DNA of 60,652 nt from a virus (Duplodnaviria; Caudoviricetes). The position numbers were made by a program, and so were the translations under genes. Of this stretch, positions 11,762-53,258 are shown in pieces. The notes below the pieces were generated by a model, which saw only the letters and a list, made by a program, of their open reading frames with translations, was not told the origin of the DNA and did no database searches. The DNA lies in IMG/VR virus record IMGVR_UViG_3300044630_001263, positions 1 through 60,652 of that record; one strand, given 5' to 3'. Within the stretch, counting starts at the first letter, position 1, and each line of letters begins with the position of its first letter.

Positions 11762-12216
11762 CAAAGCTAAGCGAAAACTTTACACTTGAAGAAGCTACAC
11801 ACTCAGACACAGCTGTTCGAATGGGTATCAACAATCAACCCGATGAACGTCAGCTGGAGAATATGAAGAAAGCAGCTGAGGGTATGCAACAGATTAGGGC
11901 TGTGTTAGGTAAACCTATCAGTATTAATTCTTGGTTACGACTACCTGAAGTAAACGTAGCAGTAGGCGGCTCAAGAGTATCGTCTCATATGGACGGTTGG
12001 GCTATTGACTTTACTTCATCATATGGTAATCCACTTGCTGTATGTAAAGCTATTGAGGCTGCAGGTATTAAGTTTGACCAAATGATTCATGAGTATGGTC
12101 GTTGGACTCACATCTCTTTTGCACCTGAAATGCGTGGTCAAAAGCTAACTATCTTCCGACCTGCTAACAAATATAAAACAGGTTTATTAACCGAAGAAGA
12201 ATATAATAAAACTTAA
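11758..12216 (+). CDS. Endolysin, peptidase M15 family
   Basis: LSENFTLEE, SSHMDGWAID (SxHxxGxAxD) and WTHISF zinc-ligand motifs. Confidence 0.85.
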   Translation: MTKLSENFTLEEATHSDTAVRMGINNQPDERQLENMKKAAEGMQQIRAVLGKPISINSWLRLPEVNVAVGGSRVSSHMDGWAIDFTSSYGNPLAVCKAIEAAGIKFDQMIHEYGRWTHISFAPEMRGQKLTIFRPANKYKTGLLTEEEYNKT

Positions 12217-12230
12217 TCGGTACCTATTAG
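12213..12230 (+). promoter_or_regulatory. Putative phage RNAP promoter, copy 1
   Basis: TTAATCGGTACCTATTAG, upstream of the nozzle gene; matches the recurrent motif. Confidence 0.7.
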
Positions 12231-19374: not shown

Positions 19375-22300
19375 ATGGCACCATTATCAGGTAAACAACA
19401 AAGAGAGTACCTCAAGTTCCAGAATAAAGAAGCTCGTGAAGCGGTTAAAATGGAACTTGACGAAGGTCGTAAACAACAATTACATGAGATTAAACTTCAA
19501 GAAGCAGCCGCAAAAGCTAATCAAGGTTTAGGTCATAAAGAACAAGTTAATAATGCTAAACTTAAAGACATGGGTATTCCTCCTGCTAAGATGAATAAAC
19601 AAAAGTTAGGTATTCCAACACAAAACCCATTGGCAGGTACTGGTATGTTTAAACAAGGTCAACGTAGCCTTGCTCAAGCTCCTATCTTCCAAGCACAAGG
19701 CACTGATACAGTCCCTGCTATGCTTACTCCCGGAGAAGCAGTTATCCCAGCTCCAGCAGCACAAAACCCTAAGAACAAAAAAGCTATTAAGCGTATGGTT
19801 CAAGAAGGTCGTAAGGCTAATCGTCTTCGTGATGGTGCTGTTGATGTGCGCTATTCAGATGCTCCTGGACAGGCTAAGTATCACATGGACGGTACCAGTG
19901 GTGTACCCTCATTAGCATATCGTCATCCAGACGTACCCGGATCTTCGTTTAATGATGGTACAATGAGTGTACCTGACTTTAGTCGTGGTTCATCTGCTCA
20001 GGCAAACTATAACAATGGTACCTATGGTGTTGTGCCTCAGCAAGTTCAACAAGCTGTAGGCTATAACAACGGTAATGAAAATGTATCTTACATGGATAGG
20101 TTCCTTAACTTTATTGGTGGTCAAAAGATACCCGAACAACAACCTGTTGTTGCTCCGTTAGCTGCTCCAGCTTCAGACTTTAATACTGTTATTGAAAAAG
20201 TATTTCAAAGGGAATATCCAAGTGAAGATAAGGCTTATCATGTAGTTAAAGGAGATAAGGGCGGTCCAACTAAATATGGTATCAGCCAAAGAGCTTATCC
20301 TAATCTTGATATTAAAAATCTTACTAAAGAGCAAGCAATTGAAATTGCTAAAAGAGATTATTGGGATAAAAATAAAATAGACGAATTAGATCCTGCATTG
20401 CGTGAAATTCATTTTGATACTGCTTTTAATAAAGGAAACAGTGCTGCTAAGACTTTGTTGAAACGTTCTGGTGGTGACCCAACTAAATATCTAGATGAGC
20501 GTCAAAAGTATGCAAATGAAATTGTAAAAAGTGACCCTTCACAAAAGAAATTTCAAAAAGGTTGGTCTAACCGAGTTGGTGATCTCCGTAAGGTAGCTGA
20601 AACCGCTACAGATGTTTTGATTCCTTCAGCACAAGCTGGTACATTACCAACTGCAGAAGTACCTTCAGCAAGTGCAACTAAAGCTCCAGTTCCTCCCTTA
20701 AGTAATATTCCTACAGGTCGTGAAGTTTTAATTGCTAAACAAGATTTAGCTACAAGTACTAATCCTCGGGTTATTCAAGCGGCTAAAGATGTTTTGGCAA
20801 AAGCTAACCAAGCTATTCCAACATTAGCAGATACTAGAGCACCTATTTTTGATGTTACTAATGGTGTAACTAAACCTGTTAATTTATTTAACCAAGATCA
20901 AAAAGATTTAATAAGGCTCAGTGAAATTATTAATGACCCAAGTATTACTGCTAATGATAAAAAATGGGCTTATACAGAAATAGATCGTATTAAAAGAAAT
21001 AATCCTTTAGAAGTACCTACAGCTAGTTCAGTACCTACTGTTGTTTCTGATACAGATACTAATAAAGAAATTCCTAAACCAGTAAATGTATTAGACAATC
21101 AACAAGCAATGGCTAATGATCGTGAATTTAATACGTCTCTTAGTACTACTTCAGAGATCCCTACCTTAGAAGGTAATGGTTTAAAACCAGGAGACAAAGA
21201 CAGGTTTAATATGCTTGGCTTAGAGTCAAAGAAAGAGCTTGATAGGGTTAGCGAAGAAGTTAAACGAGTAACACAAATGCAAGGAACGCCTGAAGAAAAA
21301 CAAGGATTCCTTGCTAAAGCTTTGGAAGGTATTTTTGGACCTAAAGGTTTATTTAGTGATAAAGAACTTATTCGTTTTGGTATATTAGCTGCTGGTGGTA
21401 TGCTTACTGGTGGTTCTGTTGGTGGTTCTTTGCGTGTTGCTGGTTTAAATACACTTCAAGCAGCTGATAGACGTCAATCTGAAGAAGCTTCTGCTGCTAA
21501 ACAACAAGCTCAAATAGATGCTTATAATGCAAGACAAGATAAACAATTAACAGCTACTGCTGCAGCTAATGCTCGTAAAGATCAGCAATCATTGTATAAC
21601 AACCTAATTAAATCTGCTCAAGATATAGGTCAGATAAGCCCAGAGGTTTCAGCACAACTTTATAGAGCAAGTTTTGCTGGCAAATTTGGTGATATCGAAA
21701 GTGTATTAAACACAGATAAGTTTGCCACACCTCAGTATCGAGCTGGATTAAAACCAACTGATAAGCCTTCTACTTTTATTCAAGAAGGTTTTACTACGCA
21801 CAATGAAATGTACAGGGATCCTAAAGATCCTAATTTATTAATTTCAATTAGCAGGGGTCCAGATGGTAAGTCAGTTATTTCTAGAGTACCTGCTAAAGGA
21901 TATCGTGAAGTAACATCTACTGCAGATACTGTAGCAGAAAAAGAAAGACAATTTAAAGATACAAATTTAAGTGCTCGTTTGTTTGGTGTAGATGACAAGA
22001 AAAATAAAGGTATTTATTTTGATTTATCTAAGCAAGATGCTGTTGGGCAATTAAAAACATGGCAGAATCAACAACGTAAATTAAATTTACCAGACGACTA
22101 CACTCAATTTTCAGAGCAAATTAACCATGCTTTAGATATTGCAGCTAAAACGGGTGAACGTAAACCTCACGTAGGTAAAATGCTAGATATGCTTGTTATT
22201 AATAGTACTGCATTAACTAATAATGATATTATTATTGATTCTACTACTAAGAAAATGATTGAGCCGGGTAAACTTGGTAAGCTAACTGAAGATGTTAACT

Positions 22301-22542
22301 TGTTTAATGAAAAGAAATTAGGTAAAGAAGCTGACAAAAAGAAAGTTCTAGCTGCTTCAAATGCCTTTATTAATAAAGTTTCAGAAGGCTACAATGCTCC
22401 CGGAGATAAGCTTTCTCAGCTTCAACTAGCCGAAAAGGTTGGTAGAGATAATCCTATGTTTAACAAAATCAAAGAAGCACCAAACCCTTATTGGGGTTAT
22501 GTGTATTACCAGATGGCTATTGACAAACCTAAAAAGGAATAA
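19375..22542 (+). CDS. Internal virion protein with glycoside hydrolase family 108 lysozyme domain
   Basis: RE...DKGGPTKYGISQRAYP..LT-EQA..YW...FDTAFN-G...GWSNR at about 20.18-20.59 kb; also GTDTVPAMLTPGEAV. Confidence 0.8.
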   Translation: MAPLSGKQQREYLKFQNKEAREAVKMELDEGRKQQLHEIKLQEAAAKANQGLGHKEQVNNAKLKDMGIPPAKMNKQKLGIPTQNPLAGTGMFKQGQRSLAQAPIFQAQGTDTVPAMLTPGEAVIPAPAAQNPKNKKAIKRMVQEGRKANRLRDGAVDVRYSDAPGQAKYHMDGTSGVPSLAYRHPDVPGSSFNDGTMSVPDFSRGSSAQANYNNGTYGVVPQQVQQAVGYNNGNENVSYMDRFLNFIGGQKIPEQQPVVAPLAAPASDFNTVIEKVFQREYPSEDKAYHVVKGDKGGPTKYGISQRAYPNLDIKNLTKEQAIEIAKRDYWDKNKIDELDPALREIHFDTAFNKGNSAAKTLLKRSGGDPTKYLDERQKYANEIVKSDPSQKKFQKGWSNRVGDLRKVAETATDVLIPSAQAGTLPTAEVPSASATKAPVPPLSNIPTGREVLIAKQDLATSTNPRVIQAAKDVLAKANQAIPTLADTRAPIFDVTNGVTKPVNLFNQDQKDLIRLSEIINDPSITANDKKWAYTEIDRIKRNNPLEVPTASSVPTVVSDTDTNKEIPKPVNVLDNQQAMANDREFNTSLSTTSEIPTLEGNGLKPGDKDRFNMLGLESKKELDRVSEEVKRVTQMQGTPEEKQGFLAKALEGIFGPKGLFSDKELIRFGILAAGGMLTGGSVGGSLRVAGLNTLQAADRRQSEEASAAKQQAQIDAYNARQDKQLTATAAANARKDQQSLYNNLIKSAQDIGQISPEVSAQLYRASFAGKFGDIESVLNTDKFATPQYRAGLKPTDKPSTFIQEGFTTHNEMYRDPKDPNLLISISRGPDGKSVISRVPAKGYREVTSTADTVAEKERQFKDTNLSARLFGVDDKKNKGIYFDLSKQDAVGQLKTWQNQQRKLNLPDDYTQFSEQINHALDIAAKTGERKPHVGKMLDMLVINSTALTNNDIIIDSTTKKMIEPGKLGKLTEDVNLFNEKKLGKEADKKKVLAASNAFINKVSEGYNAPGDKLSQLQLAEKVGRDNPMFNKIKEAPNPYWGYVYYQMAIDKPKKE

Positions 22543-22544
22543 AT

Positions 22545-25500
22545 ATGGATCTAAGACCATTATCTGAAATTCCAGATGACAAACTTCTTATAACAAATGA
22601 GAAAGGACAAGATGTTTCTGTAAAGCCTCATGATGCAGATACATACTATACGGATGCTGGTCTTGGAAAACGTATTGTAGGTTTTGATGCTGCAGAGGTC
22701 CCCAAAATAACTGAGACAGGGGGATTCTCTGCAGGATCTTCTTTGGGTTTAGCCCAGAGTGCTGCTACTAAACAAGTATTAAAAGACTACGGTTTTAATC
22801 GTGAAATTATTGTTGGTAAAGACGAATACAAGCGTGACTTAGTTAAGCTAGTTAATCCTCAAGGTGAAACAGCAGAAAACTTTTTGTTAAGAAATCGTAT
22901 TGTACAACCTACAAAGTATACATCCGACAAAGATATGATTGATAGATCATTTCAAATCTTTCAAGATGCAATGATTCAACATGAACAAAAAACTCCAGTT
23001 CAAAAAGCAAGAGAGTTAGTTGAAGCTACTTTATCTAGCGGTACTATGGTACCCAGATTACAAGCTAATACTGTAGAAGAGTTTCAAGACTATACTAAGG
23101 CTACAAGCAATAAAGGTTTAGCTGAACAAGAACAAATGATTAAAGATCTTGAGAAGAGAATACAATCTCCTAAGATCAACGAGTTACAAAAACAAGATTA
23201 TTTAAATCAACTAAATAAGCTAAAAGAAAACTATCAATACAACCTTAACTTACCTAAGAACATGTATGTAGATTCCTTAGAGGGATTCCGACAAAAAGGT
23301 GCTTATGGTACTATGGCAGAGTTTGGTAGGGCTTTAGACTTAGGTTGGATAGCAGTAGATAATAGCGCTGCAAACTTTCTTCAATGGTCAGGTGACTTAG
23401 TTAAGTCTAAACCATTAATGCAGTACGGTAAAGACTGGGAGTTTGATAATAAGAGAGCTAGACGTCTTGTAGACATTTCTGCTGGTGATAGAGATATTAC
23501 TGGTGGTACTGTTACCTCTCTTGATGATGTTGAAAAGGATTTTAGTAAGGTATTTAAATTCCTTGGTACCTCTGTATTACAGTATGGTCCTCAAATGGCG
23601 GTAATGATTGGCGGCTCTGTTGCTGGTGGTTTAGCAGGTGGTCCAGCAGGAGCATTTGTTGTACCTATGGCAATGGGTATTGCTGATGTGTATGGTGAAA
23701 TGCCTGACAATGAAAAAGATCCTTACATGGCGGCTGCTATTGGTAGCGCTGTTGGTCTTGTTGACCGTTTTGGTTTTGCTAAAGGCTCAATTAAAGGTTC
23801 AGACCTACTAACTAAAAAGGGTTTAGCTGAAGTATCTTCTAAGATAGCGGCATCTAAAGGCATCTCTGTTCCTGAAGCAACAAATCTTTTGCATAAAGAA
23901 ATGATTGGCATTACTAAAGATTATGCTTTAATTGCAAAGAGTGTTGCAGCAGATCAGTTAGCTAGCAAACAAAATTTATTAGACTTGATGCTACAGATAA
24001 ATAAGTATGCAGGTAAAGAAGCTTTAACAGAAGCTATTCAAGAATCAATTCAATATGCTGGTATTAGAGGGACAACCTCTTTAGACTTTGATTGGTCAGA
24101 GCTATACAAGCGTACTAAAGAAGCGGCTATTGTTGGTGGTATTTTAGGTGGTACATTTAGTGCTCCTGGAGCGATGATAGATAGAGCTAACTTTAATCAG
24201 CAACTTAATATGCTTGCTGGTATTGAAACAAAACCTTTAACTCGTAATACTGCTATGGAGCAGGAAGAAATTGCTCGCAACGGTACTAAACTTGATGATG
24301 TTCAACTTGCAAATAAATTAAGAAACTATAGCAAGTCAGGCGGTAAACCTGTTAATACATTATCAGATTTAATTATGCCCGGAACTACCCCTAATACTTT
24401 ATGGCAAGACTTTAATAGCTTGTTAACTAATGGTGGGTTGTTTAGCCAAACAAGAGATAACAATTTAGCACAATATACTCAATATGAAGGTGGTAGAGAG
24501 ATTGCTGGTTTGTTTGATGCTAACAGTGTTCGTGGTGTATACTCAGGTATGTCACCATTTAAACGTATACACTCTATTGCTAACAGCGTTATGTCTTTGT
24601 TTCCTAATAGCGCAGAGAAAAGAAAATTATTTAATACAGATAATAACAAAGACATTGGTGAAATACTTTTAGAATCTTATAACAATGGATTGCAACATCA
24701 AGGTGCTTTAGAATACAGAGCAAAATTAGATACAATGGGTCAGGCATTAGCAGATACTATTGATGGTCTTGGTAACAATACTGGTTGGTCTTCTACTGAG
24801 ATTAGACAACCTGATTTCTTTTTAAAGAATCAAATTGTAGATCCTAATTTGGTTAGAGCTAATGCCGATGAGTTTATTAAAACTATTGAACAGAATTACG
24901 TGTCTAAGGGTTTTCCTGGGGGTAAAGTTAATAGGACTTTCTTAGAAGACTTAGCTACTCGTATATCTGAAAACATGACTTATCGTGAAATGAAAGACTT
25001 AAAAGATCTTGGTATGCTTGATAGCCCTGTTTTAAATAAATTTAGGTCTAAAGACGTAGAGCATAATGCTACTCGTTTAGTTGAAATGGTTTCAAGATCC
25101 GCAGTTAAGAATACTATCTTTGGTTCTAATGGAGAAGTAGTAGCTAAAGGTATTGCTAAGATGCTGGATGCTAATCAAATTACAGAGCAAGAAGCTAGTC
25201 AACTTGCGATGAACGTTGATCAAATGATTAAATCTTTTGATGGTAATCTAAATCAACCACAGAATCCAGTAATTAAAGGTGCAACAGATAATCTTACATT
25301 TACTACAATGATGGTGTACATGGACACTTCTTTGTTTGCTAACTTAGCTGAAGTTGTTTACGGTTCTTTAGGTCTATCACCTAAACAAATGGTTAAATAC
25401 TTTGGTTTAGTAAGTAAAGAATTTGCTTCAGATGTTGTAGCTAAGTTTGCTCAAGCTGGTAACAAGATAACTGGTGGTAAGATACCATCATTAGAAGAAC

Positions 25501-26489
25501 GTGAAATGTCAAAGAACGTGTCTATGCTTCAGCATACAGGTCACTTTGGTAAGATGAACGATATTGCTTTTAATGTTGGTGCTAATATTAATACACAGGC
25601 TAAACGTAATCTAAGTAAGATTATGTTTAAATTTAACCTTGTTGAGTCAGCAACTAACGCAGCTCGTGCAGCTCGTGGTGCTATTGCTTCAGATGAGATT
25701 AATTATTTAACTAGTATTATTGCAGAGTCTCCCAATAACAATGATGTAACACGCTGGGCAAGAGATCGATTAAGTTATTACCGTATGGATCCAGATAAGA
25801 TGGTAGATATCTACAATCAATTAGGTCAAGTATCGGTAGAGACACTTAATAATTTATCTGAAGGCGATCCTTTATATCAAGACTTAGCTAACCAATTAAC
25901 TAATGGTATAACAAACTTTATTGACGAATTCTCTGCAAGACCTGAGCCAGGAAGTTCTGCTAAATTATTTGATGACCGTAGGTTTGATTTGTTTACTCAA
26001 TTCAAAAAGTTTACTTGGCATTTTACTGCAAACATTATTCCTCAGATGTGGAATATGTATATTAAACGCGGTGAAGTTAAATATTCTTATAGCACATTCT
26101 CATTGTTAATGTTATCATTTGCAATGGCTTATGCTGGTATGTATATGAAGTCAATGCTTCGTGGTGAAGAACCAGAAGATGATGAAGTAAAATTTAATAA
26201 AAGATTAAAGCAAGCCTTTGATTACTCTGTTGGTGGTGCTTATACTGATGTGTTAAACACAGTAACAGAAGCTACTGCTGAAAGACCGGACGGGTCTCTT
26301 AAAAATAGTCCATTCAAAACCTTTGTATCACAGTCCCCTTCAATAAACTTATTGTTTAATACAGGAAAAGATGTGTACAAGGTTGCTACCGAGGAGGAAG
26401 ATGCCAAGGCAAAAACCAACTTGATCCGTAGAATACCCGTGTTTGGAGAAATTCCAGCTGTGCGGGACATGTATGTAAAGGAAAAATAA
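22545..26489 (+). CDS. Large internal virion protein with N-terminal thermonuclease (SNase)-like domain
   Basis: DADT...RIVGFDAAE...DEYKRDL matches the SNase DGDT/RxxGxDAPE/DxYGRxL pattern; remainder helical with Gly-rich hydrophobic stretches. Confidence 0.65.
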   Translation: MDLRPLSEIPDDKLLITNEKGQDVSVKPHDADTYYTDAGLGKRIVGFDAAEVPKITETGGFSAGSSLGLAQSAATKQVLKDYGFNREIIVGKDEYKRDLVKLVNPQGETAENFLLRNRIVQPTKYTSDKDMIDRSFQIFQDAMIQHEQKTPVQKARELVEATLSSGTMVPRLQANTVEEFQDYTKATSNKGLAEQEQMIKDLEKRIQSPKINELQKQDYLNQLNKLKENYQYNLNLPKNMYVDSLEGFRQKGAYGTMAEFGRALDLGWIAVDNSAANFLQWSGDLVKSKPLMQYGKDWEFDNKRARRLVDISAGDRDITGGTVTSLDDVEKDFSKVFKFLGTSVLQYGPQMAVMIGGSVAGGLAGGPAGAFVVPMAMGIADVYGEMPDNEKDPYMAAAIGSAVGLVDRFGFAKGSIKGSDLLTKKGLAEVSSKIAASKGISVPEATNLLHKEMIGITKDYALIAKSVAADQLASKQNLLDLMLQINKYAGKEALTEAIQESIQYAGIRGTTSLDFDWSELYKRTKEAAIVGGILGGTFSAPGAMIDRANFNQQLNMLAGIETKPLTRNTAMEQEEIARNGTKLDDVQLANKLRNYSKSGGKPVNTLSDLIMPGTTPNTLWQDFNSLLTNGGLFSQTRDNNLAQYTQYEGGREIAGLFDANSVRGVYSGMSPFKRIHSIANSVMSLFPNSAEKRKLFNTDNNKDIGEILLESYNNGLQHQGALEYRAKLDTMGQALADTIDGLGNNTGWSSTEIRQPDFFLKNQIVDPNLVRANADEFIKTIEQNYVSKGFPGGKVNRTFLEDLATRISENMTYREMKDLKDLGMLDSPVLNKFRSKDVEHNATRLVEMVSRSAVKNTIFGSNGEVVAKGIAKMLDANQITEQEASQLAMNVDQMIKSFDGNLNQPQNPVIKGATDNLTFTTMMVYMDTSLFANLAEVVYGSLGLSPKQMVKYFGLVSKEFASDVVAKFAQAGNKITGGKIPSLEEREMSKNVSMLQHTGHFGKMNDIAFNVGANINTQAKRNLSKIMFKFNLVESATNAARAARGAIASDEINYLTSIIAESPNNNDVTRWARDRLSYYRMDPDKMVDIYNQLGQVSVETLNNLSEGDPLYQDLANQLTNGITNFIDEFSARPEPGSSAKLFDDRRFDLFTQFKKFTWHFTANIIPQMWNMYIKRGEVKYSYSTFSLLMLSFAMAYAGMYMKSMLRGEEPEDDEVKFNKRLKQAFDYSVGGAYTDVLNTVTEATAERPDGSLKNSPFKTFVSQSPSINLLFNTGKDVYKVATEEEDAKAKTNLIRRIPVFGEIPAVRDMYVKEK

Positions 26490-29400
26490 ATGTCTTTAAT
26501 GAATGTGCGACCTAGAACAGGTCCATTAAGTGGTGGTGAAGCAGAACCTGCTTTAGTTCCTGAGAGTGTCCAACGACAAATTGAAGTAAACCCCATACCA
26601 AGAAGTATGGAATTAGTTCAACCTGAAGGTACTCAAATACAGTATCAATCTGATATGTATCAAGTGCCTAGGTATTCAGTAGAAGAGGTACCTACAGGAA
26701 GTGACTTTGGTGCAGGAGCTACTTCTACTACTGTACCTATTGACTATGCTTCTGAAGTTCCTGTTGATATTGAAGAACAAGGTATTCGTTTGGCTGAGCC
26801 AACGAGTCTTCCTAACTTTAATACACCAGATGAAGCTTATGAAACAATTAACAAAGCGATTCAAGACTTAGGTCCAGTGTATTCTTCTTTTAAAGTTGAT
26901 ACCGAGAAAAGAAAAACTTGGAGTGGTAATGACGGTAATGAAGCTATTGCTTTATCTAAACATTCTAATGACTTTGCTGAAAGACTTTTTAATGGTGAAG
27001 GTATTTTTGGTAATGAAAACCTAAGTAATCTTTATCAAAATGATTTAGGTATTACTGAGGAAAACTCTGCTGCTTTAGGTGGTGGGCTTATGCTAGCTGC
27101 TACAGGTGCTTTGTCTAATGTAAAATCAAGAAAATATAAAGACTTTATTGAAGACAAAAAGACTGGTAGTATAGAACCTACTTACGAAGATATTATTGAA
27201 AATCCTTTTAACATTTCTAAAGGAATGTCTAATGAGGAACGTAAAGAAGTTTATTCAGAAGCAAATCAAGCTATCAGGTCTGATCCTAATAGTCAACCTG
27301 TTATGCAGTCATTTGTAACTGATATCCAAGATCGTATTGGTAAAAACTTTTCACGACCAGACACTCCCGGTGGATCAGCTACTCCAAGAAAAGTTAGTAG
27401 AGAAATTGCTGCAGCAGAAGCTTACAGTTTATACGACAAAGGCTATATTGATATTGGTAAAGATAAGAATGGGGTTTATTACCCATTGTTGACTGCTAAA
27501 GGTGAAGACATGCTTGCAGACACCAAACATGCTGCTGCTCTTTATGATGTAGAATTACGTCATATGAATGTTAATGAGCCACTTATTCGTTCTCAATCAA
27601 CTCCTCCTGCTAGTTTTAGATTTGCAGGTAAGCAACAGATGTTTGCTCCTAACTTAAAATTCAAAGACAATTTAGGTATGGATGTTATTGATGCGGCTAT
27701 TGCTATTCAAGCAGCAGTAGGTTTTAAAGTTAACCCTATTAACCTTAGTTTGTTAGAGCAAATGGCTAGCAGTGCTTACTCAGTTGGTCCAAACTTAAGT
27801 CCTAATTTATCTACAGCAGTATTTAGTTCCTCAGGTAATTTAATTAACGCTGGTAATAATATTAGTAGTGGTAATGCTGGCTTTGTTAACCAAACCTTTA
27901 CTGTTCCTTTTGCTTATTCGGATAGCCCTTACTCTAAAACAATTGCAGACCTTTCATTAGGTAAAGTATCTGAGAAAGTCAAAGAGCTTGTTGCATCAGG
28001 TATGCCCCAAGGGAAGATAGCAGAGACTGTTGGTGATATTAATACTCGTAAGCTACAGCAAGTTAATAAACATTTAAGTGATTACTTAACTAGTAATTTA
28101 TCAAAGGGTATTCGATTTAATATGATGCAGCGTTCGCCTAGCACTAATCGAATGTTCCCATTGGCTACAGATATTAACACAACTAACCATAGCGGGACCA
28201 TTAGACCCGGTGTTGACTTCGGTTTAAAGCTTACATCTACTATTCGTGGATCATTACCCGATACATTTAGCCGAGTAAAGGCTATTGCAAGCAAAGTCTA
28301 TGATACTAAAAATAAATCAGGTATTGCTGTTGGTGAGTCTATCCATCGTGCTTTATGGGCATTACCAAAAGAAGATCGAGTGTTGTTAGATGCTATGTAT
28401 CAGATCAGTAAGTTTGCACAAGACTTTGGATTTATTAGCTTTAGAAACTTTAGACCAACACCTAAAGATTATATTGAAGCTTTAACCCCAGACGTCCTTC
28501 AAAAGATGGCGGCATTTGGTACTAAGTTTAAATCATGGTCTCAAGGTAACTTACCTAAAACAAATGAACAAGCTGACCTTCCTCCAGCATTTAACAATGA
28601 ATTAAAAGCATTCTTTGAAAAGAAAGAATGGGGACCCCGAATCCGTAATGCTATTATGGCTTCTGATATTGTTAATGCTGCTAAGGCTGGTGGAGGTGTT
28701 GTTACATTAGACGCACCTATTGAGACTGATGCTTCTCAATCTAATGCTTTTATTATTTCCATGCTAATTGGTGATTTAAAAGTTGCTAATATTCTTGGTG
28801 GTTATTTTGGTGGTGATCAAAATTATGCTGATGTAAGAAAAGAATATAAAGACTTACGTAATCTTGTATCATCAACAGTTAACACAGATATTGAAGATAC
28901 TTTAAGAGGTACAGACGAGGCAGGTAAGAAAGAAGCATTCCAAAATTTAATGGATGAAGCTAAGCTAATGTACGGTAGCGAGTTTGATAAGATTTATGCT
29001 CGAGGTATTGTTGTTGCTGGTCTTTACGGTAAACACCCTGAATATATGTTTACTGAAGTTGAGACTATGCTTAGTAAACTAGCAGGTCTTAGCGACAAGT
29101 TAGATAACATTGAAGCAATGTACCCTAATCGTAAAGAATTTCTTGAAGACTTGTGTTCTATATTTAGCACATCAATGAGAAATCACTTAAAGAATTTACA
29201 AGGTTGGCAACAAGTTGCTTCGTCTATTGCAAGTCTTAAGTCTGCATTTAATGGTTCTTCTAGAATTAAATCATTTGGAAATACATATATTGATTTAGGT
29301 TCAAGCTATGCTACAATGGTGGAAGATGAATCTAATACCATTAAAAATATAATGGGTCTTCCTGATGAAGTAAAGAACTTATCAGGTAGAGCATATGATA

Positions 29401-30338
29401 TTGCAGCCCCAGGAAGTGTAGGCAAGTCTCTTGCAGACCTTCGTGAGATGAAAGATCGACTCAAAGAACTTAATGTTAATATCGAAGACTTTGAAGAGCA
29501 ATTGTTTATGTCAGCTTTTGCTGGGGACAAAGCTCGTAAGGCTTTACCTGTTGTGTTGATTCAATCAGGTGACGCATTCCAAATGGCTTCTGCTATTGTG
29601 TATGCTAATCAAGATAACCCAGATAAAGAACCTTTGAATGTCTATAGTATTCATGATGCTACAGGTACAGCACCAGGATCTACATTGTTGATGTATAATG
29701 CTTACAATAATATTTCACCATATATTATGGCTAAGAATAGTAAGAATGTGTTACAAGATCTTGAACAATCTATGGTTGATGATTTCAAAAATGCAATTAC
29801 TGAAGTTAATAAGTCTGGTAAAGCAAACATAGGTACACTGGGTAAGTATAAAGCTATGGGTGGATACTTCGATAGAATGTATAACTCCTTGTTTATGAGA
29901 TCTAGAGATGAACTTAGAGGTCGAGTTGATTTAGATCCAGACTATACCAAGATATCTAAAGAATATAACAAAGCAGTTATTGATTTAGCAATTTCATTTG
30001 GATGGTTACCTCCAGTTAATAGGAATGAGAAAAAGAAACCTAATAACATTGTTACACCACAACAATTTGCTTTGTTGTCTAGATTAGCTATAACACATGC
30101 TGGCTGGAATGAAAATAATCAAAGTACATTCCCTTCATTAGATAAATTAGTTGAACAACATAACCAAAAAGTTTCTGATTTTAATAAAGCTAATAGGAAA
30201 AATGCTGCAGTTAAACCTAAAAGATATTTTAAAATGGATTCAAGAAACCGTTATAAGTTTGAAAAGTTTATTGCTAACAATGAAACATTTGTTAAAGAAA
30301 TGGCTTCTAATCAAAATCAAATTGTAAACGCTAAATAA
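26490..30338 (+). CDS. Putative virion-encapsidated single-subunit RNA polymerase (N4 vRNAP-like, compact)
   Basis: Ordered motifs STNRMFP, PIETDASQSN (motif A), KIYARGIVVAGLYG (motif B), LPVVLIQSGDA and YSIHDATGT (motif C); last gene of the ejection-protein block. Confidence 0.8.
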   Translation: MSLMNVRPRTGPLSGGEAEPALVPESVQRQIEVNPIPRSMELVQPEGTQIQYQSDMYQVPRYSVEEVPTGSDFGAGATSTTVPIDYASEVPVDIEEQGIRLAEPTSLPNFNTPDEAYETINKAIQDLGPVYSSFKVDTEKRKTWSGNDGNEAIALSKHSNDFAERLFNGEGIFGNENLSNLYQNDLGITEENSAALGGGLMLAATGALSNVKSRKYKDFIEDKKTGSIEPTYEDIIENPFNISKGMSNEERKEVYSEANQAIRSDPNSQPVMQSFVTDIQDRIGKNFSRPDTPGGSATPRKVSREIAAAEAYSLYDKGYIDIGKDKNGVYYPLLTAKGEDMLADTKHAAALYDVELRHMNVNEPLIRSQSTPPASFRFAGKQQMFAPNLKFKDNLGMDVIDAAIAIQAAVGFKVNPINLSLLEQMASSAYSVGPNLSPNLSTAVFSSSGNLINAGNNISSGNAGFVNQTFTVPFAYSDSPYSKTIADLSLGKVSEKVKELVASGMPQGKIAETVGDINTRKLQQVNKHLSDYLTSNLSKGIRFNMMQRSPSTNRMFPLATDINTTNHSGTIRPGVDFGLKLTSTIRGSLPDTFSRVKAIASKVYDTKNKSGIAVGESIHRALWALPKEDRVLLDAMYQISKFAQDFGFISFRNFRPTPKDYIEALTPDVLQKMAAFGTKFKSWSQGNLPKTNEQADLPPAFNNELKAFFEKKEWGPRIRNAIMASDIVNAAKAGGGVVTLDAPIETDASQSNAFIISMLIGDLKVANILGGYFGGDQNYADVRKEYKDLRNLVSSTVNTDIEDTLRGTDEAGKKEAFQNLMDEAKLMYGSEFDKIYARGIVVAGLYGKHPEYMFTEVETMLSKLAGLSDKLDNIEAMYPNRKEFLEDLCSIFSTSMRNHLKNLQGWQQVASSIASLKSAFNGSSRIKSFGNTYIDLGSSYATMVEDESNTIKNIMGLPDEVKNLSGRAYDIAAPGSVGKSLADLREMKDRLKELNVNIEDFEEQLFMSAFAGDKARKALPVVLIQSGDAFQMASAIVYANQDNPDKEPLNVYSIHDATGTAPGSTLLMYNAYNNISPYIMAKNSKNVLQDLEQSMVDDFKNAITEVNKSGKANIGTLGKYKAMGGYFDRMYNSLFMRSRDELRGRVDLDPDYTKISKEYNKAVIDLAISFGWLPPVNRNEKKKPNNIVTPQQFALLSRLAITHAGWNENNQSTFPSLDKLVEQHNQKVSDFNKANRKNAAVKPKRYFKMDSRNRYKFEKFIANNETFVKEMASNQNQIVNAK

Positions 30339-30340: not shown

Positions 30341-30391
30341 AAATAAAAAACCCCTACTAGGATTATTCCTAATAGGGGTTATTTTTTTTTT
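30341..30391. terminator. Bidirectional terminator where the two genome arms converge
   Basis: A run, AACCCCTACTAGGA-TTAT-TCCTAATAGGGGTT stem-loop, long T run. Confidence 0.9.
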
Positions 30392-31843: not shown

Positions 31844-31851
31844 TTTTTTTT

Positions 31852-34152: not shown

Positions 34153-34170
34153 GTATTAGGTACCGTCTAG
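34153..34170 (-). promoter_or_regulatory. Putative phage RNAP promoter, copy 3
   Basis: CTAGACGGTACCTAATAC on the minus strand, between the RNAP and nrdJ genes. Confidence 0.7.
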
Positions 34171-36368
34171 CAGAAAAAGTATTTAGATTCCATAACCTCA
34201 CTGAGTACTAGGTTACCCAGTTCAGGTTGGCTGAAGGTGAATGTATCCTTATTATCCATAAGGGTATCTTGAATGATGTTAAAGAAGTTTTCTACATCAT
34301 ACTGTGCGATGAAAGTCATCTTAGTTACTTCCTGAAGGAAATCAACTTCATCCGCATGTGTACTGAAGCTATCATGGACTGCTCCAAAAGAACCGTTAAA
34401 GCTAACGATAGTGTTTGCCATGTGAGCAGCATCATATGAGTGAACAACGTTAGGGCTGATACCAGAAGCAAAGGAGCGTCTACAAGGAACACGTTCCCCA
34501 GTCTCCTTGTTAAGTACGTCAACCTTAATAACGTGCATGACGCGTCCGTCTTTATTTCCTTGGATACCTTTAATAGTTCCTCTTTGTTTCCGTTCATGCT
34601 GGAGGTAAGCCTTGTATACCACAGGGAACCCTGATGGGGTTGTCCATGTAAGTTGGTTTTTTCCTGAATTGAGTTCATGTTCAGCTATCTTCTGTAAATA
34701 CTTGGTTGTCTTAAGTGGTCCTGCACAGACCGTGTTAATGGCTTTGATTAGGTTACCTGCTAAGATATCACACTGTTCTTCAGTGATGTTATACTTAACA
34801 GTGAAACCTTCTACGTGGCAGTCGTCATACATATTCTTTGCGATACGTAACTTACCTGCACTGTATGCACGAGTCATTGAGCCTCGTTTAGCAATGCCTT
34901 TACGGATATGTTTCATAGGCATATCCTTAGCTTCGAAGTACTCAGGCATAATACTAATGAGTTCTTTAGCTACAGCTACATAGAAGTCTTTCTGGATAGG
35001 TGTAGGAACAAGTGACACCAGTGTACCAGCTTGTTTATCCTTAGACATAGCCGCTAAGTGTTGCCACCCGTTATTAGAACCGTCAATAGGTATAGGTAGA
35101 CCAGACATAAAGTCTTTCTTCTCCATTGATGCTCTCTTGTATCCTAACAGTTCATTACAGCAAGCTAAGAAGCTATAAGCTTTCTCTGCATCCTGATGAA
35201 TAGTCTTCATACGAGCAGTCTCATAGATAAACCCTATGTTGTTATCTACCCATGCAACCCTGTCTTCCAGTGTCATCTTATCTACAGAGATAGTGTCTAA
35301 GCCTTCACCCTCAAGGTAAGTCTTGTAGTCTGTCTGGAAGTATTTAGGTATCTCATTGATATTAAAAGACTTATTATAGCAAGCTGCTGCATGGACTTTG
35401 ATCCAGAACAAACCACGTTCAGTAACCTTCTTCTTATTAGCAAACAAGAATAAGCTACGAGCTAAGTCACTACCTTGGAACTCTAGGAATGATTCTGCAT
35501 AGTACACTCTACCACGGTAGTCACATGAAACTTCCTGATAAAATGTTCTTTCATTAATCAATTCTGCTTTCTTAAGTACCTGCATATACTCAAAGTATTT
35601 ACTGAGCATACGCTGTAGCTTAGGATCTTTCTTACCAAGGAACTTAGTACCGTCTGTATGGAACAGTTTCTTAGGTAACTCTAAGTTCTCATGGTGTATG
35701 TTGTACTCTCTGACAACACCATCTTCATCAACTAACTCAAGGATTTCCTTAGGAGTTTGTGCTTGCATAGCTGATAATACAGGTGTATTAAGCTTCCAAG
35801 GTTGTTGACGTAATGTTTCAAGAGACCGTACAAAGGTTTTATTAAGGTTCTCATGGAACAACTTAGAGTTAGTCCAGCCTTTAATAAAGGGTTCTTTAGT
35901 TAATGGACTATAGAGTCCAGCAATAGGTAACAAAGGTTCAAACGAAGTACCTATTAAGGTAGGCTTGATATCATCTGCTTGGTTAACAATGCGCACCATG
36001 TATGGGGCTTTGTAACCAGCATACTCTCTGAAGATATCAATCAGTCCGTCTTGGAGGAAAGTTTCAAGCAGTAAGTCTCCAAGAGATAAAGTTGTTTTGA
36101 TGTCTGTCTCATCAGCTCCGATAGCTCTTGCAATTCTTTTTCCGATAAGGTCAGATGCGAAAGTGAGTTTAACAGAGGCAGAATGCGTTGCATTTTTATT
36201 TCGGATACAGTAACGAAGTAATGTATCCCACGACTCGTTAATAAAGCGTTCAAGTTCGTATTCCCATGTTGGATAGTGTGCTAGAAGGCGAGCACCCTCA
36301 TTGTAAATCTTATCTGAGTTGATAACAACCTTCGATACACGTTCAGTAAGATAGTTTAATGGATTCAT
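34167..36368 (-). CDS. T7-family single-subunit DNA-directed RNA polymerase (short N terminus)
   Basis: DYRGRVY, QGSDLAR, DGSNNGWQH (A), RKGIAKRGSMTRAYS (B), PNVVHSYDA, VHDSF (C) and C-terminal SKYFFC. Confidence 0.95.
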   Translation of the reverse strand: MNPLNYLTERVSKVVINSDKIYNEGARLLAHYPTWEYELERFINESWDTLLRYCIRNKNATHSASVKLTFASDLIGKRIARAIGADETDIKTTLSLGDLLLETFLQDGLIDIFREYAGYKAPYMVRIVNQADDIKPTLIGTSFEPLLPIAGLYSPLTKEPFIKGWTNSKLFHENLNKTFVRSLETLRQQPWKLNTPVLSAMQAQTPKEILELVDEDGVVREYNIHHENLELPKKLFHTDGTKFLGKKDPKLQRMLSKYFEYMQVLKKAELINERTFYQEVSCDYRGRVYYAESFLEFQGSDLARSLFLFANKKKVTERGLFWIKVHAAACYNKSFNINEIPKYFQTDYKTYLEGEGLDTISVDKMTLEDRVAWVDNNIGFIYETARMKTIHQDAEKAYSFLACCNELLGYKRASMEKKDFMSGLPIPIDGSNNGWQHLAAMSKDKQAGTLVSLVPTPIQKDFYVAVAKELISIMPEYFEAKDMPMKHIRKGIAKRGSMTRAYSAGKLRIAKNMYDDCHVEGFTVKYNITEEQCDILAGNLIKAINTVCAGPLKTTKYLQKIAEHELNSGKNQLTWTTPSGFPVVYKAYLQHERKQRGTIKGIQGNKDGRVMHVIKVDVLNKETGERVPCRRSFASGISPNVVHSYDAAHMANTIVSFNGSFGAVHDSFSTHADEVDFLQEVTKMTFIAQYDVENFFNIIQDTLMDNKDTFTFSQPELGNLVLSEVMESKYFFC

Positions 36369-49369: not shown

Positions 49370-49873
49370 TTAGAACATTGCTTCTTCAGAGGCATCTGTA
49401 TCAACAGAGGCACCCTCAACATCAAAATCAACAAAGTTTTCAGATTTACGTTCATAGCGAACAAGATCAGTAACTTGTACAGCTACAAGCATAGTAGAGA
49501 TACCAGACTTACTGATTTTACCGTTAGGGAGTTTAATTTCATAAGGTGAGCAGTACACCATAACATTACCGATAGAACCATTACCAATCAACTTTGGATC
49601 AAGTTCTTTCTTACCTGCATCTACCACACGAACTTTGGCAGCATCTGTACCATCTTTCTTAAAAGCTTTCTTCTTAAGATTAACAGAGATCTTACCGCCT
49701 TCAACAGGCTTTACTTTACCGAATTGAGAAAACTCTTTCTCACGTTTCTTGTCACCTTGAATCTGTAACTCAAACTGATCAACACCGAATGGTGAGACAG
49801 GTTTATCGAGTTTAGCCCAGAATAAGGCAACATCTTTGATGATAACGTTAGAAGAATTGTTTGCTTGTGTCAT
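49370..49873 (-). CDS. Single-stranded DNA-binding protein (T7 gp2.5-like)
   Basis: WAKL--P, IGNGS-GNV and L-AVQVTDL motifs, plus an acidic tail ending in Phe. Confidence 0.8.
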   Translation of the reverse strand: MTQANNSSNVIIKDVALFWAKLDKPVSPFGVDQFELQIQGDKKREKEFSQFGKVKPVEGGKISVNLKKKAFKKDGTDAAKVRVVDAGKKELDPKLIGNGSIGNVMVYCSPYEIKLPNGKISKSGISTMLVAVQVTDLVRYERKSENFVDFDVEGASVDTDASEEAMF

Positions 49874-49914
49874 GATATTTTCCTATGGATTAATTAATTC
49901 AAGTATATTTCTCG

Positions 49915-49932
49915 CTAGTCGGATCCTAATAG
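49915..49932 (+). promoter_or_regulatory. Putative phage RNAP promoter, copy 4
   Basis: CTAGTCGGATCCTAATAG upstream of the lone plus-strand gene at 49971. Confidence 0.65.
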
Positions 49933-49970
49933 ATAATTGTTATCTAACAGAAACAGAACAGGAGAACAGA

Positions 49971-50363
49971 ATGTCAGGTGGTAAAGCCCGTAACATTAAT
50001 TCTCTGGCTAATCTAAAGTTAATTACTTCAGAAACAGCTAGAGAAAATCAGAAGAAAGCTACTCAATCAAGAATGTTGAATAAGCAGATCAGAGATGAGT
50101 TTAAACTTAACGCTAAAAACTTCCAAGAAGTAATGAAGGATCTACCTCAACTATCTTCATTGGATGTACTCAGAATGGCTATGCATCAGGCTCTTCAACA
50201 AGATAACTTTGAAGATGCAGCTAGATACGCTAACATGGTAGCAGAGTATGAACAACCTAAACTACAAAGGATTGATCAGACTACCACTACACGTACTGCT
50301 GACCTCACAGATGAGGAACTTCAGAGGATTATCTCAGAGGAAGGTCTTGATAAGAGTTCTTAA
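49971..50363 (+). CDS. Putative terminase small subunit
   Basis: NSLANLK...E-ARE, A----AEYEQPKLQRID and DLTDEEL motifs seen in small terminase-like proteins; AGGAG RBS. Confidence 0.6.
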   Translation: MSGGKARNINSLANLKLITSETARENQKKATQSRMLNKQIRDEFKLNAKNFQEVMKDLPQLSSLDVLRMAMHQALQQDNFEDAARYANMVAEYEQPKLQRIDQTTTTRTADLTDEELQRIISEEGLDKSS

Positions 50364-50497: not shown

Positions 50498-50515
50498 CTA
50501 TTAGGTACCAGCTGA
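50498..50515 (-). promoter_or_regulatory. Putative phage RNAP promoter, copy 5
   Basis: TCAGCTGGTACCTAATAG on the minus strand, pointing toward the SSB/replication genes. Confidence 0.65.
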
Positions 50516-50521
50516 ATAAGA

Positions 50522-50731
50522 TTATGATTCTATTGGGTTTTTCTCCTTTAGTGCATAAAAGACTTCGACAACATAAGGTGTCTGTAATGAGTAGAATGTT
50601 AACTTTGACACATCAACATTCTCATCCATCGAGTTTTTGTATCTTTCAATACAGTCAGCAACCGTCTCACCGAACTCTGTGTAGAAGTATTCATCAACAC
50701 AGATCCAGTTAGCTGTAACTAGTTCATTCAT
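50522..50731 (-). CDS. Early hypothetical protein
   Basis: GAGGA RBS. Confidence 0.6.
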   Translation of the reverse strand: MNELVTANWICVDEYFYTEFGETVADCIERYKNSMDENVDVSKLTFYSLQTPYVVEVFYALKEKNPIES

Positions 50732-50888
50732 TTATCTATCCTCACTTTCTTTACCCACAATAGTTTACCTTTGAGAAAAGCCTTTTGGATACCAGTGGTA
50801 TCGTCAAAGACAATTGATATTTCAGACCGTACTCGAGATTGGATTCTCTTGATAAGGTCTGTATAGATTTCTGCGGCTGAGTGCATAT

Positions 50889-51131
50889 TTAAATCTCTAT
50901 TTCTTTACCTATTTTATTTATTAACTCTACAATTTCATCATAAAAGTCATGACCCTCGTAGGTTAAAGCTTTACCTATTACTTCAGCATTCATGAAGATA
51001 GCTTCTAATAGGTGGTGTTCTTCAACATTTTTAATAGTGATCCTTAAAGTGTATGGTTGGAATACTATAGGATAATCTGTGCATTTGTAAACTTCCATAT
51101 TAGTATTGATCCTCTTCAACAAGTGCGTCAT
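50889..51131 (-). CDS. Early hypothetical protein
   Basis: Shares FQP(Y/F)-L-I---- with the adjacent 51100..51321; true start probably MEVY. Confidence 0.55.
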   Translation of the reverse strand: MTHLLKRINTNMEVYKCTDYPIVFQPYTLRITIKNVEEHHLLEAIFMNAEVIGKALTYEGHDFYDEIVELINKIGKEIEI

Positions 51132-51321
51132 AGATGTGCATACAAATCTTTGTCATACGGTTATGTACCTCAGGATTGTTTGTATTGGTTACGTCTGCAA
51201 TGTTTGTATAGTACGAGAACAACGACATCATATCGTAGAACTCTTGTTGGGTGTCTACGGAGATTGTCAGCTCGAATGGCTGAAAGGGTAGCTTATTATG
51301 TCTGCGGGTGATAGTCTTCAT
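51100..51321 (-). CDS. Early hypothetical protein
   Basis: Packed ORF; FQPFELTISV. Confidence 0.6.
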   Translation of the reverse strand: MKTITRRHNKLPFQPFELTISVDTQQEFYDMMSLFSYYTNIADVTNTNNPEVHNRMTKICMHIYDALVEEDQY

Positions 51322-51500
51322 AGTAGATTTCCTGTTATGAGTGATTCGGTTGGTTCATTACAGTACGAGCAGAGGAAGTCTGCGGTACGTCTGTTGGTAT
51401 GGTCATTGCGAACACGTAATACTTTGACGTCATCTATGTTGAATTCATTATTACATGTCTCGCAGTGGACAAACCAGAGTCTTTCAAAGCCTCCACACAT
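51318..51500 (-). CDS. Early zinc-ribbon protein
   Basis: CETC...CSYC; AGGAG RBS. Confidence 0.6.
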   Translation of the reverse strand: MCGGFERLWFVHCETCNNEFNIDDVKVLRVRNDHTNRRTADFLCSYCNEPTESLITGNLL

Positions 51501-51681
51501 GATGTCTCCTTGTTAAAAATAACGAAAAGTTACAAGAAATGTTTAAAAAGAACGTTCAGGTTTTCCACACACAAAAATCCCTCAGGACTTCCCTCAATTC
51601 TCGCCTAAATCTCAGCAAATGTCTCAAAATTACTGTCTATTAGTAACTTTTTGTGAGGGAATGTCTTGAGAGTACTGTCTG

Positions 51682-51888
51682 TTAGTTAATTCCCCTCTCT
51701 TCATCGATAGCTCTGTGCCATTTATCCTCTTGTTTTAGGTAGTTTCTGTGTTTTGTCAGCTGATGATATATGTTTTTCTCATCTTCTGTGAACACCCCTA
51801 TGTTAGCCATAGCTGTTGTGACTGCATCCAGCTCTTTTTCAGAGAGATCTAGAGTGTATTTCCCGAAAGAATGTCTTAGGAATGCCAT
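51682..51888 (-). CDS. Early hypothetical protein
   Basis: AAGGA RBS. Confidence 0.6.
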   Translation of the reverse strand: MAFLRHSFGKYTLDLSEKELDAVTTAMANIGVFTEDEKNIYHQLTKHRNYLKQEDKWHRAIDEERGIN

Positions 51889-51889
51889 T

Positions 51890-52147
51890 TTAGTATCCTT
51901 CCACTATTTGGTCATAGATTGCTGTGTATTCTATGATGATGCCATTGAGTTCTACCTCATTGACCATGTTTTCGAGTACACTTTTGTTGTCTGACACAGC
52001 ATACAGCAGAGTTTCCCCTGTTGTGTCTGGTGACATGACCACTTTACAGCCAAACTCTTGGACTGACTCAATAACTTCTTCTGTTGTACATCCAAAGTCT
52101 CGTGCCTTGAGTGGGTTTAAGAGTAAATAACGTGCTTTCATGCTCAT
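51890..52147 (-). CDS. Early hypothetical protein
   Basis: AAGGAG RBS. Confidence 0.65.
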   Translation of the reverse strand: MSMKARYLLLNPLKARDFGCTTEEVIESVQEFGCKVVMSPDTTGETLLYAVSDNKSVLENMVNEVELNGIIIEYTAIYDQIVEGY

Positions 52148-52152
52148 TCTCC

Positions 52153-53256: not shown

Positions 53257-53258
53257 GT

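Follow-up and report, generated by a model that had tools for sequence, protein, structure and literature searches.

A predicted divergent single-subunit RNA polymerase, putatively a virion enzyme, at the end of the late operon of a tailed phage

The virus record IMGVR_UViG_3300044630_001263 (Duplodnaviria; Caudoviricetes) carries on its + strand, at 26490-30338, an open reading frame (ORF) of 1282 amino acids (aa), here called P0001. It is described below as a divergent single-subunit RNA polymerase (ssRNAP; RNA polymerase, RNAP) that is putatively carried in the virion. The window analysed is the whole IMG/VR virus record, which is linear and 60,652 bases long, with a CheckV completeness of 98%. 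A sequence-only reading of this DNA had proposed a hidden, compact virion RNA polymerase (vRNAP) in a phage with two RNAPs, and it had quoted five motif strings in P0001. The frame is open over 1282 aa, and all five strings are present in the translation at the positions below (nt, nucleotide).

26490..30338, + strand: P0001, divergent ssRNAP gene, 1282 aa, putative virion RNAP (ORF, fold and motifs)
28137, + strand: STNRMFP, residues 550-556 (translation)
28134..28157, + strand: T/DxxGR-like element, S549-F556, S-x-x-T/N-x-R-x-F (conservation, hhalign)
28710, + strand: DAPIETDASQSN, residues 741-752, motif A region (translation)
28722..28748, + strand: motif A, E745-A753, E-T-D-A-S-Q-S-N-A, with the putative catalytic D747 (conservation, model strand)
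28986, + strand: DKIYARGIVVAGLYG, residues 833-847, motif B region (translation)
28989..29033, + strand: motif B, K834-K848, Kx3Rx7YGK (conservation, model helix)
29544, + strand: LPVVLIQSGDA, residues 1019-1029 (translation)
29562..29573, + strand: pre-motif-C element, Q1025-S-G-D1028, the equivalent of HSxD in T7-type RNAPs (conservation)
29643, + strand: YSIHDATGT, residues 1052-1060 (translation)
29652..29660, + strand: motif C, H1055-D1056-A1057, with the putative second catalytic Asp (conservation, model turn)

Conserved motifs in the P0001 family

Two alignments were used to follow these elements across the family. A1 holds 27 sequences, and A2 holds 65 sequences with a mean column identity of 17%; residue counts in A2 refer to the rows that have a residue at the position concerned. 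Of the 43 invariant columns in A1, 24 lie inside the five quoted strings, which make up only 54 of the 1282 residues (4%), and 27 are reached when directly adjacent residues are included. This concentration shows that the motif match goes beyond chance.

The residues expected of an active polymerase are also the most constant ones in A2. In the T/DxxGR-like element, R554 is found in 57/57 rows, S549 (position -5) in 54/57, and F556 in 49/57, and a Gly precedes R554 in some members only. In motif A, D747 is invariant (59/59) and Q750 nearly so (58/59). The spacing of motif B is kept throughout, with Y846 in 59/60, G847 in 56/60, and K848 in 60/60 rows. The pre-motif-C element retains Q1025 in 63/64 rows and D1028 in all 64. 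In motif C, H1055 and D1056 are each present in 64/65 rows, and the single exception at D1056 (P0172) is accounted for by a 310-aa fragment with a misaligned end.

The sequence-only reading had further noted that the usual R and K of motif B are swapped in P0001 (K834-x3-R838-x7-Y846-G847). This holds for the branch to which P0001 belongs and fails for the family as a whole, where 46 rows have R at position 838, 12 have K, and 2 have G, and where 53/60 have K at position 834. A deep sister clade reads DDGNQNG at motif A, Kx3Kx7YGK at motif B with the canonical second Lys, and VHDS at motif C. These motifs are nearer to the T7/N4 consensus than those of P0001, and the canonical Lys of the clade makes the swap a feature of one branch. 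The clade consists of proteins P0174-P0192, which are about 1250-1360 aa long.

Relatives of P0001 numbered 29 in a 90%-clustered collection, and an exhaustive search at E<=1e-3 gave 56 cluster representatives. They are mostly 1200-1660 aa long, and none is named a polymerase. One homologue that is 97% identical to P0001 bears the JGI label 'DNA-binding transcriptional ArsR family regulator'.

Predicted fold of P0001

The structure of P0001 was predicted with AlphaFold2 for residues 83-1282 (1200 modelled residues), with the 65-row alignment as input. The mean pLDDT of the model was 89.9 and the pTM 0.88. D747 lies in a strand at model residues 662-666 (block pLDDT 93), K834 and R838 lie in a helix at 749-760, and strands 969-972 and 975-978 are joined by a turn that holds D1056 (block pLDDT 92); the motif blocks have a pLDDT of 90-93. 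In the model, motifs A, B, and C are thus placed as expected of a Pol A-type palm.

A Foldseek search of this model against the PDB returned 73 matches at E<=1e-3, and all matches listed were ssRNAPs. The best was yeast mitochondrial RNAP (mtRNAP; 8c5u_A, 7.4e-11), together with T7 RNAP (5.2e-10) and the RNAP domain of N4 gp50 (1.1e-7); POLRMT was also listed. Re-alignment by VIA again gave ssRNAPs for 50/50 entries among the matches listed. The sequence-only reading had named N4 mini-vRNAP and T7 RNAP as the structures for comparison, and both were matched. T7 RNAP (8dh2_E) gave Z 19.6 with 650 residues aligned over chain residues 25-883, which includes the N-terminal domain, and N4 mini-vRNAP (3c2p_A) gave Z 15.0 with 749/1093 residues aligned. 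For yeast mtRNAP, the values were Z 19.2, 675 aligned residues, and an rmsd of 5.4. T7-like RNAPs and segments of N4-like vRNAPs were also matched in a BFVD search.

A structure search independent of Foldseek, covering 48,161 representative chains, placed ssRNAPs at ranks 1-5 (Z 19.0-10.6, 686-742 residues aligned). These included mtRNAP (Z 19.0, 686 aligned), T7 RNAP 3e2e_A (Z 18.4, 689 aligned over T7 residues 26-883, rmsd 4.6), and N4 3q0a_A (Z 14.8, 728 aligned). Family A DNA polymerases came next, with Z 10.3-5.2 and about 300-360 aligned residues. The distance between the two groups settles the choice between RNAP and DNA polymerase as far as a fold can settle it.

These matches bear on the proposal that P0001 is a Pol A-type polymerase with another product, acting as a DNA polymerase or as a primase-like enzyme that is injected to initiate replication and not gene expression. 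Q1025 and the D-A-S-Q-S string resemble what are presumably the Q849 and DYSQIE elements of family A, the fold search did return family A enzymes (Z<=10.3), and T7 and mitochondrial RNAPs also prime DNA synthesis. The proposal is nevertheless highly improbable. Alignments to ssRNAPs reach Z 15-19.6 and take in about 690-750 residues, the N-terminal domain among them, whereas those to DNA polymerases stay at Z<=10.3 and about 300-360 residues. Motif C reads H-D-A/S and not H-D-E, no exonuclease domain was found in P0001, and both a Pol A DNA polymerase and a primase-helicase are encoded elsewhere in the genome.

The RNAP fold covers all 1200 modelled residues, and there is no counterpart of the 1000-aa N-terminal or 1400-aa C-terminal domain of the N4 enzyme. 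The description of P0001 as compact and stand-alone is borne out by this result. Given the conserved residues and the confident model, it is very likely that P0001 is an ssRNAP-fold protein with an intact active site. The reading of P0001 as an unannotated T7/N4-type RNA polymerase is strongly supported by the conservation of the catalytic motifs, the confident predicted fold, and three structure searches. Together with the separate 733-aa RNAP described below, this sustains the earlier claim of a phage with two RNAPs.

Weak winged-helix matches (MarR/PadR/TubR-like; Z 4.4-5.5, 82-108 aligned) were seen in the N-terminal domain at P0001 residues about 150-350 (model residues 70-270). This region may be a promoter-recognition module.

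Gene position, packaging, and the division of transcription

The genome is laid out in two divergent gene arms, a structural arm on the + strand and an arm on the - strand. In the structural arm, tail fibres come before holin and endolysin; more virion proteins are next, and after them the three giant ORFs (1055, 1314, and 1282 aa), which end at 30338. In the - arm, small ORFs come first and are followed by genes for an SSB-like protein, DNA polymerase A, an exonuclease, a primase-helicase, a 733-aa T7-like RNAP, a class II ribonucleotide reductase, and tRNA-Met. The DNA polymerase and the primase-helicase are identified by Pfam and PHROGs.

19375..22542, + strand: first giant protein, 1055 aa, 0 Cys, likely ejection protein (phrog_315, E 2.3e-34)
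22545..26489, + strand: second giant protein, 1314 aa, 0 Cys, all-helical, likely ejection protein (weak match to phrog_6958 'virion structural protein', E 1.9e-4)
30349..30380: 14-pair hairpin (6 pairs are G-C) between runs of A and T, 11 nt past the P0001 stop; terminator between the convergent arms
53441 down to 30627, - strand: - arm, small ORFs first, then replication and RNAP genes
54507, + strand: large terminase, structural arm
56673, + strand: portal, structural arm
59624, + strand: scaffold, structural arm, ORF open at the window end
1-831 (window start), + strand: major head protein, the record beginning inside the gene, ORF open
11345 and 11758, + strand: holin and endolysin, structural arm

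No gap of >=35 nt interrupts the genes from a promoter-like motif at 12216 to 30338, an operon of about 18 kb with tail and virion genes. P0001 is therefore the last gene of the late operon. The two genes directly before it encode the other giants. Residues 292-354 of the first giant form an internal lysozyme domain of the GH108 type (PF05838, E 3.6e-16), which is separate from the phage's own holin and endolysin. Lysozyme domains are frequent in the internal or ejection proteins of podophages. The AlphaFold2 model of the second giant is of low confidence (pLDDT 50.3, pTM 0.32), with 0 Foldseek matches at E<=1e-3, and a fold predicted so weakly says nothing for or against kinship with N4 gp50 domains or with gp51/gp52.

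The arrangement is conserved as a module. The second giant gene is kept upstream of the P0001-type gene in related loci. In 9/9 loci that have enough upstream DNA, including that of Roseobacter phage CRP-7, three giant ORFs in a row (of about 830-1220, 1100-1400, and 1250-1350 aa) stand at the same point.

Cysteine content separates P0001 from cytoplasmic polymerases. P0001 has 1 Cys in 1282 residues, and the two giants upstream have none. Among 58 full-length members of the P0001 family, 44 have 0 Cys, 13 have 1, and 1 has 4, and the N4 vRNAP has 0 in 3500 residues. The family of the cytoplasmic T7-like RNAP of the phage (P0002) has a median of 1.43% and a minimum of 0.81% (n=106), and the replication enzymes of the phage have 1.8-2.5%.

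The end-of-operon position, the giant-trio module, the near-absence of Cys, and an early arm free of the promoter-like motif lead to the inference that P0001 is packaged in the virion and ejected. For the sequence-only reading of a hidden compact virion RNAP, this means that the polymerase and its compactness hold up, and that packaging is indirectly supported by the gene position, the module, and the cysteine depletion.

A different view is that P0001 is an active RNAP that is not packaged. It would then be produced late and act in the cytoplasm beside the first enzyme, for instance to make late or very late transcripts or to prime replication. The fold and the active site are equally strong under this view. 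It is judged unlikely, since as the last gene of the structural operon P0001 would appear too late to drive that operon. Its near-absence of Cys matches the N4 vRNAP and the neighbouring giants and not the cytoplasmic RNAP family, and it is always linked to the two other giants.

The second RNAP, the copies of a recurring promoter-like motif, and a candidate early region for an injected enzyme lie as follows.

34167..36368, - strand: P0002, conventional T7-like RNAP, 733 aa, 10 Cys (PF00940, E 8.3e-56; phrog_414, E 1.2e-98)
12216..12230, + strand: promoter-like motif, 19 nt before the gene at 12249
54465..54479, + strand: promoter-like motif, 28 nt before the large terminase gene at 54507
50498..50512, - strand: promoter-like motif, the - strand match nearest the start of the - arm
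46506-46520, 43283-43297, 34153-34167, and 31994-32008, - strand: promoter-like motif copies in the - arm
50513..53441, - strand: candidate early region, small ORFs, motif-free, the first about 3 kb of the - arm

The two family matches of P0002 confirm that the second RNAP is a real, single 733-aa chain. In CRP-7 and in 11/13 IMG/VR loci, the P0001 homologue is followed within a few kb by an opposite-strand gene for a P0002-type RNAP, and the remaining 2/13 loci end too early to show it. The two-polymerase arrangement therefore belongs to the whole group.

The motif GxxGGTACCTAATAG has 9 matches in the window with <=3 mismatches, against 1.12 expected, and that number was attained by 0/100 shuffles. 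In seven cases the strand of the match is that of its arm, and five of these seven are in inter-ORF gaps, 17-30 nt before a gene start or just before a tRNA. The exact 12-mer of the motif also occurs in the related loci L002, L004, and L007. The motif ends in TAATAG, much as T7-type promoters end in TATAG. The motif is probably the promoter of the 733-aa RNAP. A scan at <=3 mismatches found no - strand match between 50513 and 53441 of the - arm, and there is no enrichment of sigma-70-like sites there either (36 vs 41.8 expected).

Taken together, the reading preferred here is that P0001 is a catalytically competent and very divergent DNA-dependent RNAP of the T7/N4/mitochondrial type that is packaged, injected, and used to transcribe early genes; its probability is put at about 0.6. 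Template choice and timing, like packaging and ejection, are inferred. Under this reading, P0001 would be made late, as the last product of the structural operon, alongside two Cys-free giants, one of which has a lysozyme domain. The three giants would first be built into the capsid and delivered into the cell before the DNA or together with it, in the manner of N4 gp52, gp51, and gp50. The injected P0001 would then transcribe the first - arm genes, which are free of the phage's recurring promoter-like motif. Finally, the 733-aa T7-like RNAP would take over at GxxGGTACCTAATAG promoters for the middle and late genes.

Several results weigh against this reading, and most come from searches by sequence. 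P0001 matches 0 families in Pfam (E<=0.01), PHROGs, and NCBIfam, and PF00940 (RNA_pol) is among those without a match in the Pfam scan at E<=0.01. When 32 distant members out of 64 homologues were compared with Pfam, 0/32 matched an RNAP family at E<=0.1. A phmmer search of the PDB with P0001 returned a ribosomal protein only (E 0.17), and the A1 profile returned lipases only (E>=0.052); no RNAP was found by either. A core profile of the family scored 26.9 against the N4 alignment, a value reached by 2/40 column shuffles and not significant. At the level of single residues, the T/D of T/DxxGR, at position -4, is variable in the P0001 family in A2, and the His of HSxD is replaced by Gln (Q1025). 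In the early region, some sigma-70-like sites are present on the - strand, so the host RNAP could do the early work. A crude inverted-repeat scan of 50300-54600 found no recurring short hairpin of the N4 promoter type, and the early-promoter candidate TAAGACATTCTCTTAA had 2 matches vs 1.4 expected, so that it is not a convincing early promoter.

The remaining sequence comparisons are mostly weak. In BLASTP, P0001 against P0002 gave a best E of 0.76, which is not significant. With hhalign, A1 against A3 (the alignment of the P0002 family used in the profile comparisons) gave E 0.4, and A1 against the single sequence of N4 mini-vRNAP gave E 0.077; both are weak, with motif C in register. The sister clade alone gave E 0.41 against A3 and 0.26 against N4. 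The A2 profile reached E 0.0068 against the P0002 family over 176 columns. In the hhalign register, R554 falls on R287 of DYRGR in P0002 and D747 on D429 of its motif A. The pre-motif-C element aligns to VHSMDAAHM in the P0002 family and IGTGDGMMM in N4, and D1056 aligns to HDS of P0002 and to D951 of N4 mini-vRNAP. The core profile scored 36.0 against the P0002 family in the region of the pre-C element and motif C, above every control: reversing the alignment gave 18.0, and shuffling its columns 25 times gave 14.3-21.7. When it was compared with P0002, the DNA polymerase of the phage, and N4 as single sequences, its scores were near null (24-26). A positive control with a known relationship, A3 against the N4 alignment, gave only E 0.035, which shows that profile-profile comparison has little power at such a distance. 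The search for N4 vRNAP relatives returned only close ones (71-99% identity), and that profile was not deepened. In the ESM Atlas, the top clusters were PF00940 RNAPs (score 0.94, 211/256 features), with that family set in 20/30 matches. The language-model features therefore offer a lead pointing to an RNAP. As Pfam, PHROGs, and NCBIfam all missed P0001, the case shows that motif reading together with structure prediction can recover such enzymes.

The same divergence would suit an ejection or internal-core protein that has an RNAP-derived fold and does not polymerise, serving instead as a DNA clamp, a translocation motor, or part of a channel. The position and composition of P0001 are those of an ejection protein, its sequence has diverged beyond every RNAP profile, and its residues at 1025 (Gln in place of His) and 838 (Arg in place of Lys) are non-canonical. 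The two positions presumably correspond to His784 and Lys631 in T7 RNAP. Such a pseudo-enzyme would not, however, keep its catalytic residues. At a mean column identity of 17%, what is held constant is precisely the pair of metal-binding Asp, the basic residue of motif B, Tyr-Gly-Lys, and the GR arginine, and N4 itself has Gly at the His position. A protein without polymerase activity is accordingly very unlikely.

The preferred reading of P0001 as an injected RNAP also raises the question of the DNA between the divergent arms, which the sequence-only reading had called an A-free cassette transcribed by the enzyme.

53520..54330: T-poor stretch ('A-free cassette'), 811 nt with 8 T on the + strand, between the divergent arms

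On the + strand, the cassette contains A 341, C 252, G 210, and T 8. Its T-free runs measure 242, 195, and 153 nt; the rest of the window has none above 29 nt. ORFs across it stay open because no stop codon can form, and T is avoided at third codon positions too, which indicates that the constraint acts on the nucleic acid. CRP-7 has an equivalent of 650 nt with 13 A (record 57350-57999; L017 22351-23000), annotated as CDS gp72; its location matches, and its polarity with respect to the structural arm is also the same. No T-free runs were found in five related IMG/VR records, which are 35-74% complete and possibly lack the arm junction. A literature search returned nothing relevant on a natural thymine- or adenine-free phage stretch. 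Motif and inverted-repeat scans found no early promoter or hairpin linking the cassette to P0001.

It can be speculated that P0001 and the T-free stretch (53520-54330) form one functional unit, the cassette being the DNA first met by the enzyme. Leftward transcription would then yield an adenine-free leader of about 0.8 kb that continues into the early genes, and it would pull the genome in, and the first DNA exposed in the cell would be without palindromic restriction sites containing A/T. This joint proposal is unlikely. If true, it would be a new coupling of genome entry, nuclease evasion, and early transcription, and CRP-7-type phages would represent the unfused state from which the giant vRNAP of N4 could derive.

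Some further features of the window were observed. The sequence AGACATTCYC, another early-promoter candidate that does not convince, is weakly enriched, with 12 occurrences at one mismatch vs 6.9 expected and 2/100 shuffles reaching that number. It occurs exactly three times, in each case on the - strand and in a gap of the early region (50364-50373, 50391-50400, and 51657-51666), and two of the three copies are TAAGACATTCTCTTAA-like units with a distance of 27 nt. At 49874-50521, the - arm has a gap of 648 nt with a very AT-rich upstream end (GC 0.275-0.29 at ~50300-50600) and AT palindromes, and part of it is spanned on the opposite strand by a 175-aa ORF (49836..50363, +). This gap could be an origin or a regulatory region. 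The gene for tRNA-Met (CAT) lies at 31917-31990 on the - strand, directly downstream of one copy of the promoter-like motif, and is followed by two tandem 34-nt repeats, 88% alike, at 31849-31916 (- strand). The scaffold (59624-60652) and major head protein genes are cut by the record ends, so that a few hundred bases are missing between them.

Comparison with known systems

The only homologue found in a cultured phage is gp33 of Roseobacter phage CRP-7 (QBQ72826.1, 1235 aa; 27% identity, E 8e-43), which is annotated 'hypothetical protein'; CRP-7 is an unclassified member of Caudoviricetes. It shares the synteny of gp35, gp34, and gp33 followed by the opposite-strand T7-like RNAP gp30, and it also carries a base-free cassette. 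In the accessible text of its description, ORF30 is the sole ORF named as an RNAP and gp33 is not called a polymerase (PMC6918029). The same text calls CRP-7-type phages 'ubiquitous in the ocean' (PMC6918029). The accessible literature describes no compact T7-type virion RNAP and assigns no polymerase function to gp33, and supplementary annotation may differ.

T7 RNAP and the Autographiviridae enzymes (PF00940) are the best structural match of P0001, with the same order of catalytic motifs and a common HD in motif C. P0001 differs from T7 RNAP in being about 400 residues longer, in its near-absence of Cys, and in its gene, which closes the late operon and is not an early gene. By profile it lies outside PF00940, and its predicted structure makes it a new deep branch of the ssRNAP fold, adding 56 cluster representatives of which none is annotated as a polymerase. 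The mitochondrial RNAPs (yeast Rpo41, human POLRMT) give the top Foldseek E-value and Z 19.0-19.2 over 675-686 aligned residues. They are cellular enzymes that need initiation factors and have no sequence-level link to P0001, and the likeness is that of the shared ssRNAP core.

The role proposed here, that of an injected enzyme for pre-early or early genes next to a second RNAP that is not in the virion, is also found with the phiKZ-type multisubunit vRNAP, crAss-like gp66, and the tape-measure-fused RNAP of P23-45, as far as the accessible sources go. These enzymes are of the two-barrel, cellular type, whereas P0001 is predicted to be of the right-hand, Pol A type. For StenR_269, the label 'putative vRNAP' is based, in the accessible text, on size, helicity, and lack of cysteine only.

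To our knowledge, the only packaged single-subunit RNAPs are the enzymes of about 3500 residues of N4-like phages. If P0001 is packaged, a 1282-residue enzyme at an N4-like position in unrelated, unclassified, and abundant marine podophages would change this picture of size. It would mean that an RNAP of roughly T7 size is usable as a virion enzyme, and it would provide a minimal model of protein ejection coupled to transcription. The size of the N4 vRNAP has been explained, in the part of the source available, by the requirement that a 'beads-on-a-string' protein be threaded along the tail (PMC13434306).

N4 gp50 (Schitoviridae) is a close parallel in genome organization. Its RNAP domain, the mini-vRNAP at residues 998-2103, shares the single-subunit T7-type fold with P0001. 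The N4 vRNAP gene is the last of its structural operon, in the order gp52, gp51, gp50, which corresponds here to the genes at 19375, 22545, and 26490, followed by the terminator. Both proteins have E-x-D in motif A and a similar spacing between the pre-C element and motif C; the N4 enzyme is without Cys and P0001 almost so. N4, like this phage, has a separate second T7-type RNAP. The differences are also clear. N4 gp50 has 3500 aa, whereas P0001 has 1282 aa and no large N- or C-terminal domains. PF21769, PF21894, PF21624, and PF21867 occur on at least 120 N4-type vRNAPs (all those listed) and none of them on P0001. Motif C is HDA in P0001, with the HD common to T7, and FDG in N4, and the His of HSxD is Gln in P0001 and Gly in N4. 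The companion RNAP is a gp15/gp16 heterodimer in N4 and a single chain here. N4 early genes have hairpin promoters, whereas no recurring one was found here between 50300 and 54600. By size, domain content, and Pfam families, P0001 thus falls outside the N4 vRNAP family, and on the best reading, it would work in the same way as the N4 vRNAP.

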